DNA from: Candidatus Woesearchaeota archaeon
GTDB taxonomy: Archaea > Nanobdellota > Nanobdellia > Woesearchaeales > UBA525
DNA length: 35,865 nucleotides
Reading direction: 5' to 3'
NCBI GenBank assembly: GCA_037442865.1
Contig: JBBIPM010000002.1
Span: 1-35,865 of the forward strand
Part shown: positions 14,238 to 25,931 of the stretch, in pieces
Layout of the letters: the number at the start of each line of letters is the position of its first letter
Numbering within the stretch: the stretch's first letter is position 1
Position numbers and translations under genes: made by a program
Notes under the pieces: model-generated
What the model saw: only the letters and a program-made list of their open reading frames with translations
What the model was told of the DNA's origin: nothing
Databases searched by the model: none

Positions 14238-14329
14238 TCCCTCGCCGCCTCGCTCCTTGTTTAGCTGTCGTCCCTCGCCGCCTCGCTCCTTGTTTAGCTG
14301 TCGTCCCTCGCCGCCTCGTTCCTCCTTGT
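14238..14329. repeat. 33-bp tandem direct repeat: two perfect copies plus a degenerate third
   Basis: The unit TCCCTCGCCGCCTCGCTCCTTGTTTAGCTGTCG occurs at 14238-14270 and identically at 14271-14303. A third copy from 14304 keeps the first 15 nt, has a 3-nt insertion, and then diverges. Confidence 0.95.
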
Positions 14330-20501: not shown

Positions 20502-21629
20502 TCATCCTTCCCTCAAGGACTCAAAGAGTTCCTCGTACTCGCTGATGATGCTCTTCCAGCGGAAGTGGCGCCTGATGCGCTCTCGCCCGGCGGCGCCGAG
20601 CCGGTGTCGCATCCTCTTGTCCCCGATGAGCCGATTCAGAGAACGGACCAGTGCGTCGACATCGCCGGGCGGAAAGAGGAGCCCGGTCTCGCCGTCACGA
20701 ACCAGGCAGCCGACGCCGCCGACATCGCTCGCCACGACCGGGACGGACGCGGCCATCGCCTCCATCACGGTGTTCGGCAGCCCCTCCGCGTAGCTCGCGA
20801 GGACGTTGATGTCAGTCGCCGCGAGGATCGCCGGGACGTCGCGACGGAAGCCGAGGAACTCTATTCGATCCTTCCGCGGCAGCGTCTTCCCTTCCGTGTT
20901 GCCGACGAAGAGGAACCGGACATTGCTATGGGTCGTGGTCAGCCGCTCCGCTGCGCGGAGGACGAGGTCCCATCCCTTCACGTTCTCGAGCCGCCCGACG
21001 TAGGTGACAATCACCTCGTCCCGCCTCTTGTCACGGCGCTTCTGGATGTCGCGCGGCGGCGCGTGTCGCCGGAAGGACTCCTCGTCGACGCCGTTGTGGA
21101 TCACGCGGGCGCGCCGGAGCCTCAGTCGTCTCGCCGTCGGAACCAGGTTCTCGTGGAGGAGGATGACCTCGTTCGCGAGGTTGAGGAGCCAGCGTCCGAG
21201 GGTCAAGGTGTAGAGCTTCACCGCCTTGTCCCGCAGCCTGAACGGGGAGAACCAGCAAAGGCCCGGGAAGGTGTCTGTCGTGATGACGAACGGCTGCCCG
21301 AGCAGCCGGAGGAGCGGGGCCGCGAGGGTCGTGAAGAAGACGTACTTGCTGATGATCACGACATCCGGCCCCTCCTTCCGGACGAGTCGCCACGTCCTCC
21401 ACCAGAGGTTGGGCATGACGTTGAAGTTGAACGGGTCCGGCAGGAAGAGGTCGCGGCTCCGATGGATGGTAATCAGGCCCATCTTCTCCTCGGCTGGTTG
21501 GTCTTTGCTCCTGGCGGTCAGGACGTGGACATCGAGCCCATGCCGTGAGAGCTCACGCGCTGTCTTGTACGCGCTCGCCACACCGCGGTGTGGGTCGTTG
21601 AAGAACGGCGTAATCAGGAGTATCTTCAT
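20502..21629 (-). CDS. GT4-family glycosyltransferase
   Basis: The N-terminus is MKILLITPFFNDPHRGVASA. The E-x7-E region is ASYAEGLPNTVMEAMAASVPVVASD. A TATA box lies ~27 nt upstream of the ATG at 21629. Confidence 0.87.
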   Translation of the reverse strand: MKILLITPFFNDPHRGVASAYKTARELSRHGLDVHVLTARSKDQPAEEKMGLITIHRSRDLFLPDPFNFNVMPNLWWRTWRLVRKEGPDVVIISKYVFFTTLAAPLLRLLGQPFVITTDTFPGLCWFSPFRLRDKAVKLYTLTLGRWLLNLANEVILLHENLVPTARRLRLRRARVIHNGVDEESFRRHAPPRDIQKRRDKRRDEVIVTYVGRLENVKGWDLVLRAAERLTTTHSNVRFLFVGNTEGKTLPRKDRIEFLGFRRDVPAILAATDINVLASYAEGLPNTVMEAMAASVPVVASDVGGVGCLVRDGETGLLFPPGDVDALVRSLNRLIGDKRMRHRLGAAGRERIRRHFRWKSIISEYEELFESLREG

Positions 21630-21706: not shown

Positions 21707-22513
21707 TCAGTACGGTCTTCCTGATCTTTTTTTCTTCTGCCGTTCTGCTCCGCTCCCTTTATGTTTCTGCGCGATGACCATCCCTTTCGTCGCGAAGCGG
21801 TTGAGGATGCGCGGCGTTGCCCGGAATCCCCAGCGATAGAAAGGGAGGTATGCCTTCCGCAGGATCGTGAACCCCGCGATGCGGATATCGTCTGTCATTC
21901 GGTCGGGAGTCTGCATGTTGATGTGCGTCCGGTCCTTCTTGGCGACGCTCCTGATGCCGAGCGAAGCGATCTTCTCGTAGCACCACGTGTCGTTCACCGA
22001 GAAGAGGATCCCTCCCGGCTTCAGGACGCGATGGAATTCGAGGAGGTACGGTGCCGGGTCGCGGAGGTGCTCGTACACGGTGATGAACGAGACGAAATCG
22101 AGCGAATTGTCACGAAACGGGAGATTCCCTTGATGGTTGATGAGCGTTGGCCGTATCCTCTTCGCTTCAGGGCTGCGGGCGAAGGCCTTCACGCGATTCA
22201 GTGAGAGCTCGATTCCGATCGGGAGCTTGACCAGGTCTGCGAACGTGGTGATTGTCCGGCCGGCCCCGCAGCCGAAATCCAGTCCTGTGGCGAAGGGGAG
22301 CTTTGTTCTGCAAGTCTCGATGAGGAATTCGCGGAGCGTGGCGTCGGCTCGGTCGCCGTCATAGTCCTTGTCGGTCTCGTAGATATCCTCGCCCAGGTCG
22401 TTCCGGAACTGGTAACGGCGGTCGCTGAAGACCACGACGCCGTCCTCAGTCATGCTGGCTCGCTCTGCGAAGGACGGCTTGAGGAGCCGATGCCAATCAG
22501 CGGTCTTTCGCAT
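21707..22513 (-). CDS. Class I SAM-dependent methyltransferase (Methyltransf_11-like)
   Basis: Motif I is GLDFGCGAGRTITTFA, followed by FVSFITVYEHL and LKPGGILF. I set the start at ATG 22513 (MRKTADW...) because a TATA-like GCTTATAATCAA lies ~26 nt upstream. Alternatives are ATG 22453 and the track start GTG 22852, which runs through the 84-bp repeats. Confidence 0.78.
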   Translation of the reverse strand: MRKTADWHRLLKPSFAERASMTEDGVVVFSDRRYQFRNDLGEDIYETDKDYDGDRADATLREFLIETCRTKLPFATGLDFGCGAGRTITTFADLVKLPIGIELSLNRVKAFARSPEAKRIRPTLINHQGNLPFRDNSLDFVSFITVYEHLRDPAPYLLEFHRVLKPGGILFSVNDTWCYEKIASLGIRSVAKKDRTHINMQTPDRMTDDIRIAGFTILRKAYLPFYRWGFRATPRILNRFATKGMVIAQKHKGSGAERQKKKRSGRPY

Positions 22514-22532
22514 TCTGTCCCCTGCGCCTCCG

Positions 22533-22544
22533 TTGATTATAAGC
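22533..22544 (-). promoter_or_regulatory. TATA-like box for the 21707..22513 methyltransferase gene
   Basis: TTGATTATAAGC (plus-strand reading) is centred ~26 nt upstream of the minus-strand ATG at 22513. Confidence 0.4.
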
Positions 22545-22660
22545 TTTCCGTTTCTCCGGGCCGCGATGAAAAAGTCGAGGCGCAACCGGTGCGTTCGTGG
22601 GCACGCCTTCGGCGTTGCCGCCTTGGCGGCCTCTGGGAAGCAGCAGCGATCGCACGATGC

Positions 22661-22852
22661 GTGCTCTCTGCGTTTCCCGGTCGCGGGACGCGCCCGAGCC
22701 CTCGCTGGAGAAGCGTCGCGCCGGCGGGTGGCCGCGTTCACTCCGTGCTCTCTGCGTTTCCCGGTCGCGGGACGCGCCCGAGCCCTCGCTGGAGAAGCGT
22801 CGCGCCGGCGGGTGGCCGCGTTCACTCCGTGCTCTCTGCGTTTCCCGGTCAC
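22661..22852. repeat. 84-bp tandem direct repeat: two perfect copies plus a 22-nt partial third
   Basis: The unit is GTGCTCTCTGCGTTTCCCGGTCGCGGGACGCGCCCGAGCCCTCGCTGGAGAAGCGTCGCGCCGGCGGGTGGCCGCGTTCACTCC. It occurs at 22661-22744 and identically at 22745-22828. A third copy starts at 22829 and matches for 22 nt before diverging. Confidence 0.95.
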
Positions 22853-22956
22853 GGAGCCGGTCCGCGACCAAACCCCCTTTGTCGCTTCGCCTCCTCTTCC
22901 GCCGACGCTCCGCCTTAACTGCGATAGCGGATTTTTTCTCCTGACCCTTCCCCGAC

Positions 22957-22972
22957 ATTAATTTTTTAAATG
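22957..22972 (+). promoter_or_regulatory. TATA box upstream of aglB
   Basis: ATTAATTTTTTAAATG lies ~38 nt upstream of GTG 23004. A GAGGG SD sits at 22993-22997. Confidence 0.5.
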
Positions 22973-23003
22973 GGGCGCCTCTGCTGATACTTGAGGGTTC
23001 GGT

Positions 23004-25931
23004 GTGACGATAAGAAAACAGAGGAAAAACCGGTCTGAGCCTGAAACCGAAGAGCGGGCGAAACAGGGCAAGGGGCCTGATCAGGGGTTGTTTGAGAAAG
23101 CCTCGCGTTTCTTCAGGCAGAATACTCGGATCTTGCTGTTTGGGCTCGTATTTCTGGCCATATTGATACCGGTGTTTCTCTCAATCCAGTACCGCAGTTT
23201 CGTCTATTCTTTGCCTGTGGCCGATGGCTGGGCGCAGAACACTATTAATCAAAACATCCGTTCTCAAGTGACCGCCAGCATACGGAACGATTTCCCTAAC
23301 CTGCCGGTTGCCAACCTGGAAAAGATGGTGGATGAGCAAGTAGATCGGTTCGTGGCCGATAACAAAGAAATTATAGAACAACAAGAGAAGCAATTGGCCG
23401 CTTATTTCCGTTCAAGGCTGCGGGAACCGGACGGTCATTCCTACTTGCCTGACTTGGACCCTTATCATTATGCGAAGAGGATTGATCTTACGCTCGCTAA
23501 TGGTTTTCCGGGTCATGAAAGAAGGGAGGGGCTGTATTGGAATAAACAGGCAGTAGCGCCACTAGGAATATTATCGGGACAAGATATGTTCACCTGGCTC
23601 AATGTACAGTTTTACAAGGTGGCCCGTATTTTCTTCGAGCTAGAGCCTCGGCACGTCCTGTTCTGGTTCAACCTCGTCTTTGCCTCCTTGAGCACAGTCC
23701 TTGCATTTCTCATAACGCGGCACAAAGGGTTGTTCGCCTCGTTCATAGCGGCTTTCCTGGTGGCGGTCCACCCTGGAAGCATCAGCAGAACCTCTGCAGG
23801 TGTTGGCGATACGGAGATATTCGCCCTCTTCTTCCCGTTGTTGGCGGCTTGGTTCTTGGTGGAGGCCTTAGAGACTGAGGAAGGCGATTGGAAACGGCTG
23901 GTCTTGATGCTCATCTTCTCAGGTCTCTCTTTCGGTCTCTTGGCACTTGCATGGGAATGGTGGTTCTTTTTCGTCGTCTTCATGGTCGCGCTGCTCTCGT
24001 TCGTAGTCTTCAGGATCGTGAGCCATTTCGTCAGGGGTGGAACGTTCACAGGGCTTTTTTCAAGCACGAAGATGAGGTGGGTGGCCGCGATTCCTGTCGG
24101 CATTTTCCTCAGCACCGGGTTCTTCGTATCCTTGTTCAGGGGTTTTGACGCGTTCGCGAGCGTCTTCCAAGCGATTATCGGACGAGTACAGTTAAAAGTG
24201 GCCATACAAGCGGGCGGCATCTGGCCGAACGTCATGACCACCGTCGCCGAGCTTAACGTGCCTAGCATAAGCGAGATAATCAACAATGCTGGTGGCAAGC
24301 TTCTTTTCGTACTGGCGGTCCTAGGCCTCGGCTTCGCAATGGTGCCGAAAGATCGGTTGAGGGTCAATGATTGGATTCTGCTCGGCTCTAGTCTACTGGC
24401 CGGCATCATCTTAGTATCGCATTTCGCCGCTGATTTCTCGATATTGAACTTCCTGATTATACTAGGTTTGCCGGTCGTTCTGGGTTGTTTTCTGCTTCTC
24501 AAAGAAGGCGATAAAGATGTTGACTTGGCTTACGCTCTGTTCCTGGCGGCTTGGCTGGGAGTGAGCATCTTCTCGATGACGAGAGGCGTCAGGTTCATCA
24601 GCCTACTTCTGCCTCCTTTCATACTGGCGGTCGCCTTAGGGCTCAACGGCACATACGTGCACCTAAAGCGGCTGTTTAGCGAGCACTTACCGACAGTGAT
24701 CGTTGTTCCTGTCCTCCTGATTTTGTTGATGGTGCCGCTCTACCCCGTGGCCGCGCAAGGCCGCGCGGTCGGTTTCCAGGCGACGCCGCACATGAGCGAT
24801 GCGTGGTGGGACTCCCTGACGCTCATCAAAGAGCAATCCGCTCCTGACGCGATCATCACCTCCTGGTGGGATTTCGGCCACTGGTTCCGGTACGTCGCCG
24901 ATCGTGGCGTCACGTTCGACGGCGCGTCGCAACGTGGTCAGCTCGCGCATTTCATCGGTCGTTCGTTGCAGACGAGCGACGAGAAGGAGACGCTCGCTAT
25001 CCTCCGCATGGTGGATTGCGGCTCCGATCGAGGCGGGGAGGAGCTCGAGTCGTTCCTCCCTTCGCAGGACCAGTACGAGGCGATCCTGCTCATGAAGCGG
25101 CTCATCCTCCTGACGCGCGCCGACGCTGAGAAGCTCCTCCTCGCGAACGGCCTCACCGATGAGCAAGCAGCCATCGTCCTGAACTACACCCATTGCGCTC
25201 CGCCTGAGGCGTATTTCATCACCTCCGGCGACATGGTGGGTAAAGCGGGCGTCTGGGGTCATTTCGGCAGTTGGAACTTCACGCGGGCGGACGCATACGC
25301 TAATTTCCATCGTCTGCCGCAGGCGACGGCTGTCGCGGGGATGAGTGCGAAGTACGGTCTCTCCGAGGATGATGCGTCTGTGCTCTATTATGATATGCTG
25401 CGATTGCCGACCGAGCCGCAGGTCAACTCCTGGATCAGCCCCTGGCCGGGGTATGCCACTGGCGTCGTCGGGTGCAACGATGAGAACGGGACGCGGCTCC
25501 TCTGCGGTTTCAACTTGCAGCTCAATTCCCAGGCTGCCGGTCGCTCGGTCTTGGAGGGGCTCGTCGTCAACATCTCCGATCCCGGCGCCTCGTTCTTTGT
25601 TGTCACGACGTATGATGCGCAGGGTCGTCGCGTCCAGTCGACGACCGAGGTGCGTCCGGAGCGGCTCCTCCTTATCCGGAACGGCACTTTGGGCGAGGTC
25701 CGGTTCCCTGACGGCGGTTTCGGTATGGCGGTCGTCGTCGACCTGGATGGGAAACGCGCGATCATGGCTGATCCGCTCCTCGCCGGCAGCCTCTTCACCC
25801 GGCTTTTCTTCTTCGACGGCGCCGGCACGGTCGCGTTCGAGAAGTTCAGCGACCAGACGACGTTCACCGGGAGCAGGATCATCGTCTGGAAGGTGGATTG
25901 GTCCAAGCTCGAGGAGCTGGGCTTGGCGTAG
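23004..25931 (+). CDS. aglB: Archaeal oligosaccharyltransferase AglB (STT3 family)
   Basis: 975 aa. It has a polytopic N-terminal domain of ~13 TM helices containing LDPYHY and GDTE acidic-loop motifs. The diagnostic WWDFGH (WWDxG) motif lies at 24864-24881, at the start of a soluble C-terminal domain. Confidence 0.92.
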   Translation: MTIRKQRKNRSEPETEERAKQGKGPDQGLFEKASRFFRQNTRILLFGLVFLAILIPVFLSIQYRSFVYSLPVADGWAQNTINQNIRSQVTASIRNDFPNLPVANLEKMVDEQVDRFVADNKEIIEQQEKQLAAYFRSRLREPDGHSYLPDLDPYHYAKRIDLTLANGFPGHERREGLYWNKQAVAPLGILSGQDMFTWLNVQFYKVARIFFELEPRHVLFWFNLVFASLSTVLAFLITRHKGLFASFIAAFLVAVHPGSISRTSAGVGDTEIFALFFPLLAAWFLVEALETEEGDWKRLVLMLIFSGLSFGLLALAWEWWFFFVVFMVALLSFVVFRIVSHFVRGGTFTGLFSSTKMRWVAAIPVGIFLSTGFFVSLFRGFDAFASVFQAIIGRVQLKVAIQAGGIWPNVMTTVAELNVPSISEIINNAGGKLLFVLAVLGLGFAMVPKDRLRVNDWILLGSSLLAGIILVSHFAADFSILNFLIILGLPVVLGCFLLLKEGDKDVDLAYALFLAAWLGVSIFSMTRGVRFISLLLPPFILAVALGLNGTYVHLKRLFSEHLPTVIVVPVLLILLMVPLYPVAAQGRAVGFQATPHMSDAWWDSLTLIKEQSAPDAIITSWWDFGHWFRYVADRGVTFDGASQRGQLAHFIGRSLQTSDEKETLAILRMVDCGSDRGGEELESFLPSQDQYEAILLMKRLILLTRADAEKLLLANGLTDEQAAIVLNYTHCAPPEAYFITSGDMVGKAGVWGHFGSWNFTRADAYANFHRLPQATAVAGMSAKYGLSEDDASVLYYDMLRLPTEPQVNSWISPWPGYATGVVGCNDENGTRLLCGFNLQLNSQAAGRSVLEGLVVNISDPGASFFVVTTYDAQGRRVQSTTEVRPERLLLIRNGTLGEVRFPDGGFGMAVVVDLDGKRAIMADPLLAGSLFTRLFFFDGAGTVAFEKFSDQTTFTGSRIIVWKVDWSKLEELGLA

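Follow-up and report, generated by a model that had tools for sequence, protein, structure and literature searches.

Two identical 84-bp units lie back to back in the gap between a methyltransferase operon and the divergently oriented aglB gene of a Woesearchaeota archaeon. What are they? An earlier note on this DNA had correctly located the repeat in the divergent gap and had offered two readings, a control region for glycosylation genes or a repeat-built extension of the methyltransferase. Our analysis points elsewhere. The repeat is very likely a young tandem duplication inside an old MITE, a non-autonomous derivative of the IS5 family.

The window, by which we mean the whole 35,865-nt stretch that was analysed, is a contig of a MAG that carries aglB, asparagine synthase and sugar-pathway genes. 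Left of the gap, on the minus strand, are a class I SAM methyltransferase, three GT4 glycosyltransferases, a second methyltransferase and an asparagine synthase. Right of it, on the plus strand, are aglB (STT3) and a GT2 gene. A search of 5.8 billion proteins turned up no close relative of the methyltransferase next to the gap (the next-best match has 37% identity over 25% of the query), which makes it an orphan within the class I SAM-methyltransferase fold, in a variable glycosylation island. The aglB of congeners is only about 45% identical. Because the methyltransferase has no close orthologue and aglB has diverged this far, there is no empty insertion site with which the locus can be compared. 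The features discussed here are collected in Table 1.

Table 1. Features of the methyltransferase/aglB gap, its neighbours and the related insertion sequences. Positions are those of the window unless a contig is named.
Feature	Position	Strand	Basis or detail
Repeat unit 1	22660-22743	.	84 bp; segment A = first 23 nt, segment B = other 61 nt
Repeat unit 2	22744-22827	.	100% identity to unit 1
Partial unit 3	22828-22854	.	Segment A: 23 nt exact (22828-22850); 27 nt with one mismatch
MITE-like non-autonomous transposon copy, decayed	22559-22869	+	311 bp including the duplication; linked to the C45 and C81 copies by nhmmer and alignment
5' terminal inverted repeat, GGCCGCGATGAAAAAGTCGAGG	22559-22580	+	Matches the IS end and the ends of the ~135-bp G004 MITEs
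Decayed 3' terminal inverted repeat, GGAGCCGGTC--CGCGACC	22853-22869	+	15/19 to the C81 terminus, 2-nt gap
SAM-dependent methyltransferase, 268 aa, first gene of the methyltransferase/GT4 operon	21707-22513	-	Start ATG 22513
Operon core promoter (putative)	22535-22550	-	TATA TTATAATC, 22542 down to 22535; BRE-like CGGAAAGC, 22550 down to 22543
aglB TATA-like box (putative)	22960-22972	+	From sequence; ~90 bp past the element end
aglB, STT3-type oligosaccharyltransferase, 975 aa	23004-25931	+	Pfam STT3, 2.1e-33; 975 aa in two public records
Cognate IS, 900 bp	G004:C66 121-1020		Ends GGCCGCGATGAAAATC... and ...CGACTTTTTCATCGCGGCC (GGCCGCGATGAAAA...); perfect 9-bp duplication ATCACCGGC
Related IS fragments	G000 C29:12170-12743, C27:1-100, C70:1-100, C133:1880-2000, C33 and C129 ends		Ends GGCTTTGTAGAAACAAATAT

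Tandem Repeats Finder reports a single array in the gap, at 22660-22854, with a period of 84 bp, 2.3 copies and 99% matches. The two full units are identical, as the earlier note had said, and its coordinates, which are off by one base, reflect a choice of phase. It had also counted 22 nt of a partial third copy. That copy is present and its exact part is 23 nt long, after which it diverges (81% identity over 42 nt). The array order is A-B-A-B-A, where A is the 23-nt segment, and the unit is 75% G+C and 7% A. The 84-bp unit has no second occurrence in its own assembly (1.24 Mb, 136 contigs), and segment A had zero matches in a metagenome scan. In these searches the unit occurs at this locus only. 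A degenerate form of the B-A junction gave 16 matches in the metagenome scan, none resembling the element outside the motif. Most of them share one conserved in-frame motif (VAAITPWNFP), and we read these as probable aldehyde-dehydrogenase-type genes. Another resemblance to the unit, at 80% identity on contig C22 of the Woesearchaeota MAG G004, was a chance match in a G+C-rich coding region. Only two arrays in the 35.9-kb window exceed a Tandem Repeats Finder score of 110. The window holds a second near-perfect tandem repeat at 14238-14323 (33 bp x 2.6, 98%), between a GT4 gene and a TATA box at ~14360; the genome contains no further copy of it, and transposon-like ends are not visible.

Perfect repeats in a scaffolded, short-read-style MAG invite suspicion, and this one has 24 N-runs, 16 of them exactly 100 N, with one N gap inside the tandem array of another MITE. 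A collapsed longer array could also look like a 195-bp periodic stretch. The public record CAYYMQ010000002.1 (35,889 bp, same contig start, 99.96% identity over 19.7 kb) carries T for C at unit position 74 in both units (22733 and 22817), as expected from one graph loop written twice. The same record agrees with the window on 2.3 copies, and further evidence against an artefact comes from an independent assembly. The Logan contig SRR11582162_466, from run SRR11582162, starts exactly at 22821 and spans aglB and everything downstream. When a k=31 de Bruijn graph was simulated, the 30-mer at 22821 branched only with at least two units, and one unit gave no branch. Because the Logan contig begins at a node that requires the B-A-B junction, the duplication is present in the reads. 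Look-ups of the left-hand Logan contig with three proteins gave only the NCBI record. An assembly artefact as the source of the duplication, of the copy number or of the perfect identity seems very unlikely to us.

The exact unit number (at least two) and the 100% identity could be assembler products. This bears on the earlier argument that zero mismatches imply very recent expansion or ongoing homogenisation. The units are identical as assembled, but as a sign of homogenisation this is weaker than was claimed, since both units are changed at one position in the second record. A short-k assembler that wrote one loop edge twice would explain this concerted C/T difference; true homogenisation is the alternative account. 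The two records differ at other sites as well. At 20510-20513 the window has CCC and the public record CCCC, which alters the C-terminus of a GT4 protein (383 aa vs 375 aa), and the CCCC version restores an ATGA-type overlap with the following gene. Further differences are found at 23273, 25973, 26009, 27159 and 34538, and the public record has 23 additional bases at the contig end.

The surroundings of the repeat reveal what it is part of. When the 490-bp gap was used as a query, matches were found on contigs C81 and C45 of its own genome (G000) and at many sites in two Woesearchaeota genomes of the same genus, and they centre on about 30 nt at 22558-22587. The element in G004 is about 135 bp long, its termini (GGCCGCGATGAAAAAGTC...GACTTTCATCGCGGCC) are inverted repeats, and it is flanked by 9-bp direct duplications (GTGAGGAGG, GGAAACGCC, CTATTAAG). 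At least 30 copies of this MITE are present in G004, many of them at contig ends, and 13 in G001. The own genome holds about 16 related copies of 135-340 bp, with perfect 9-bp duplications at the C45 copy (GCTCTTCTT) and the C101 copy (GGAGAGCGC). Among the matches listed (at least 80 loci), the end motif recurs many times only in the Woesearchaeota MAGs G004 and G001; the single matches in that list are nearly all from bacterial records, plus one 'uncultured archaeon' MAG. At a number of G004 and G001 loci (L071, L073, L083, L091, L117, L124, L066 and L102), a second recurrent sequence, ...ATTTGCCTAAGAGCC, is found at a distance of exactly 9 nt from many MITE ends. It looks like the end of another MITE family, with elements apparently stacked at common hot spots.

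The cognate IS of this family encodes a 277-aa DDE_Tnp_1 / IS5-family transposase. Its PF01609 score is 68 bits, above the cut-off, and its best NCBIfam model is NF033579 (IS5 family), at 124.7 bits against a cut-off of 140 bits. Target duplications of 9 bp are a feature of the IS903 group within the IS5 family. By the ISfinder groups, the mobilising element may belong to an IS903-like subgroup. On the same contig, a MITE of the cognate IS family abuts the 900-bp IS and ends at 110, in a common target region. We found no IS with matching ends in the own assembly (88% complete); all that it holds are fragments of a related IS whose end differs (GGCTTTGTAGAAAC), most of them at contig ends. The fragment on C29 encodes a transposase with 41% identity over the N-terminal 157 aa, and the fragment ends presumably resemble those of IS903. 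The related IS seems to break the own assembly. One further candidate, a 1.5-kb 'IS' at locus L059, has end-like motifs, but the second of these is a chance match inside a gene.

The window copy shows signs of age. Its 5' end, GGCCGCGATGAAAAAGTCGAG (22559-22579), is identical at 21/21 positions to the right end of the 900-bp IS, and the full inverted repeat is identical to the ends of the ~135-bp G004 MITEs. On the left, the element has a sharp boundary at 22559. On the right, the boundary most likely falls at 22869, where the sequence aligns with the final 19 nt of the C81 copy, and the same terminal base closes both. The right boundary is less certain than the left one because there is no target-site duplication (left GTTTCTCCG, right AAACCCCCT) and the 3' inverted repeat matches only with a gap. 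The missing duplication marks the copy as old and decayed and, since the family has 9-bp duplications, we file it as a decayed member. Terminal inverted repeats that match an IS, small size, lack of coding capacity and dispersal in many copies are all found here, the 3' end being the decayed one. The element fills 311 of the gap's 490 bp (63%), and up to 168 bp of the 311 is derived from the duplication.

The C45 copy, the closest relative, bears on how the duplication arose. Its alignment with the window covers the promoter-like flank, the 5' end and roughly 100 nt of the body, up to ...GCACGATG. The alignment then skips 41 nt, resumes in the second half of segment B and passes directly into the start of segment A. 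Because C45 has this half of B joined directly to A, the B-to-A junction (...TCACTC/CGTG..., 22737-22766) can be taken as single-copy ancestral sequence; it is single in C45 and double in the window. The ancestral A-B-A state is a reconstruction and not an observation, because the C45 copy is without the first segment A. The duplication is young relative to its surroundings, in line with the earlier note.

Internal tandem expansion recurs in this MITE family. The C22 copy of the own genome (G000 C22:5285-5720) has its own 19-nt tandem array (GAACGAGCGAGTACCCTGT) of at least four units, and the same 19-nt unit is present twice in the C100 copy and once each in the C7 and C101 copies. The assembler left the copy number of the C22 array unresolved because the array runs into a 100-N scaffold gap. 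Elsewhere in the genome (G000 C9:21850-22115), a MITE copy adjoins a tRNA gene, and the flank between TATA and element is tandemly duplicated (TAAAAGTGATGGGAAAGG x2).

Three steps would account for the present state of the locus. The MITE would first have inserted close upstream of the methyltransferase operon's BRE/TATA, as this family usually does. The element would then have decayed, with damage to its 3' inverted repeat and loss of the target-site duplication. Finally, slippage or unequal exchange between two 23-nt copies of segment A would have converted A-B-A to A-B-A-B-A. We infer the role of segment A, the order of these events and their neutrality; one such event between A copies that already existed would be the simplest origin.

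Does the repeat encode anything? The earlier note had entertained the idea that from GTG 22852 onward the methyltransferase might have an Arg-rich N-terminal extension, in which each unit would read TGKRREHGVNAATRRRDASPARARARPA. The frame is indeed open from that GTG and runs without a break into the methyltransferase, and 84 bp is a multiple of three. Openness is uninformative here, since five frames out of six stay open over the repeat. Codon composition argues against translation. The G+C content of codon positions 1/2/3 is flat across the repeat (0.66/0.68/0.72), as compared with 0.57/0.43/0.77 in the methyltransferase body; five neighbouring genes, that body included, have 0.41-0.46 at position 2 and 0.70-0.86 at position 3 (about 0.6 at position 1). 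When the 381-aa ORF was compared with 5.8 billion proteins, the only full match was the 268-aa product, and none covered the extension. The Pfam Methyltransf_11/23/25 domain starts at residue 191 of this long ORF. An extension would also need read-through of the BRE/TATA and the MITE inverted repeat that lie inside it. The homologous DNA of C45 is intergenic, and family copies differ by indels whose lengths are not divisible by three. In the public record the methyltransferase is a 268-aa product that begins at ATG 22513, in agreement with the operon start that the earlier note had preferred, and this ATG with a TATA box at ~22537-22542 is the best operon start. We regard the extension as extremely improbable.

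A small plus-strand gene deserves still less credence, and has next to no chance of being real. It would be either a 131-aa ORF running from ATG 22566 (MKKSRRNR...) to 22961 or a small RNA transcribed from a TATA box at 22537. A TATA-like box stands 28 nt upstream of the ATG, and the start of the ORF resembles a signal peptide, but this start (ATGAAAAAGTCG) is the transposon inverted repeat and recurs at every copy. The C45 version stops after 23 codons, copies vary by 1- and 5-nt indels, and the order of BRE and TATA fits leftward transcription. Rfam gave no match at E<=1 across 22300-23200, and the unit and the 5' body fold no better than shuffled controls (z-scores +0.86, +0.68, -0.26 and -1.38). 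The repeat DNA is non-coding and gives no sign of structured RNA.

By the archaeal consensus, 22535-22550 would be the operon promoter, and the operon mRNA is probably leaderless, since ATG 22513 lies only about 26 nt downstream of the BRE/TATA. The TATA-like run that the earlier note had seen before aglB is also present. The element starts 16 bp upstream of the operon BRE/TATA, and both core promoters are outside it. The array lengthens the spacer between the two intact divergent core promoters by 84 or 168 bp of G+C-rich sequence. We assume that the effect of the element on expression is most likely nil or small.

The idea of a control region, as the earlier note had framed it, is right about the place, a divergent gap, but not about free-standing control DNA, as the repeat is the interior of a MITE. 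In a stronger form, the array would be a functional, copy-number-tunable regulatory module for the glycosylation genes, such as an activating or spacing element or a contingency locus. Its location between two divergent promoters of N-glycosylation genes suits this model. MITEs can alter the expression of their neighbours (PMC10969869), and MITE-borne minisatellites with promoter activity exist in bacteria, BrickBuilt being an example (PMC4596501). Against the model, the unit is found only at the window locus and has no A/T-rich box or recognisable motif, copy number is equal in the two records, and neither core promoter is part of the element. We think a tunable module unlikely.

The young duplication in an old MITE remains our preferred reading, and the position of that MITE relative to the promoter is shared with a number of its relatives. 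We took 50 distinct element ends from the own genome and the Woesearchaeota loci retrieved. In 20 of them an A/T hexamer begins 13-18 nt beyond the end, vs 1% for random positions. The 900-bp IS lies 14 nt from a TATA box, a BRE/TATA-like arrangement is also found 16 nt from the end of the C45 copy, and, of four ends shown for fragments of the related IS, those on C29 and C27 have a TATA-like box some 15 nt away. One could speculate that the transposase aims IS and MITE copies at the upstream edge of promoters, and that minisatellite expansion then tunes or phase-varies surface-glycosylation genes. We hold this to be decidedly unlikely. If true, docked elements would gain variable length (by 84 bp in the window, by 19 bp in C22) in a DPANN archaeon.

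MITEs are well known in bacteria and some archaea. The archaeal examples are from Sulfolobus, Halobacterium, Haloquadratum and Desulfurococcus, with no DPANN lineage in a 2024 review (PMC10969869), and our literature search found no paper on Woesearchaeota MITEs. Like prokaryotic IS5-derived MITEs, the present family is short, non-coding, multi-copy and intergenic, its inverted repeats are identical to those of a DDE-transposase IS, and intact copies have 9-bp duplications. It differs from them in its DPANN host, in a cognate transposase that scores below the NCBIfam IS5 cut-off, and in that the window copy has no target duplication and a damaged 3' end.

There is bacterial precedent for a MITE with a minisatellite. 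All copies of BrickBuilt, a MITE of Porphyromonas gingivalis, are defined by a 23-nt repeat, and promoter activity has been shown (PMC4596501). The window element resembles it in being intergenic and in having a tandem repeat between a leader and a tail with inverted-repeat ends. Unlike in BrickBuilt, the 84-bp duplication is confined to a single copy, the 19-nt array of another copy is a different one, and there is no internal promoter-like box. The earlier note had also mentioned repeats of archaeal extrachromosomal elements. The tandem repeats of Borgs (Methanoperedens) are A-enriched and occur throughout an extrachromosomal element, and the ones within ORFs are genuine coding sequence (PMC9879509). 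Perfect units, a flanking partial repeat, a 3n unit length and an archaeal host are shared features, but the window unit is 7% A and non-coding, and only one other long perfect array accompanies it in a 36-kb window that looks chromosomal. A parallel with Borgs is not supported.

These findings have practical consequences. The methyltransferase annotation should start at ATG 22513. Before homogenisation is claimed for perfect repeats in short-read MAGs, their transposon context and the possibility of assembler-imposed identity should be checked. The repeat-bearing element is an ordinary kind of feature, neither part of a protein nor a dedicated control element. What had looked like one or the other can be re-annotated as a by-product of mobile DNA, and 63% of the aglB/methyltransferase gap as a dead MITE with a young internal duplication. 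The docking of IS and MITE copies about 14-16 nt from TATA boxes in Woesearchaeota may merit a study of its own.
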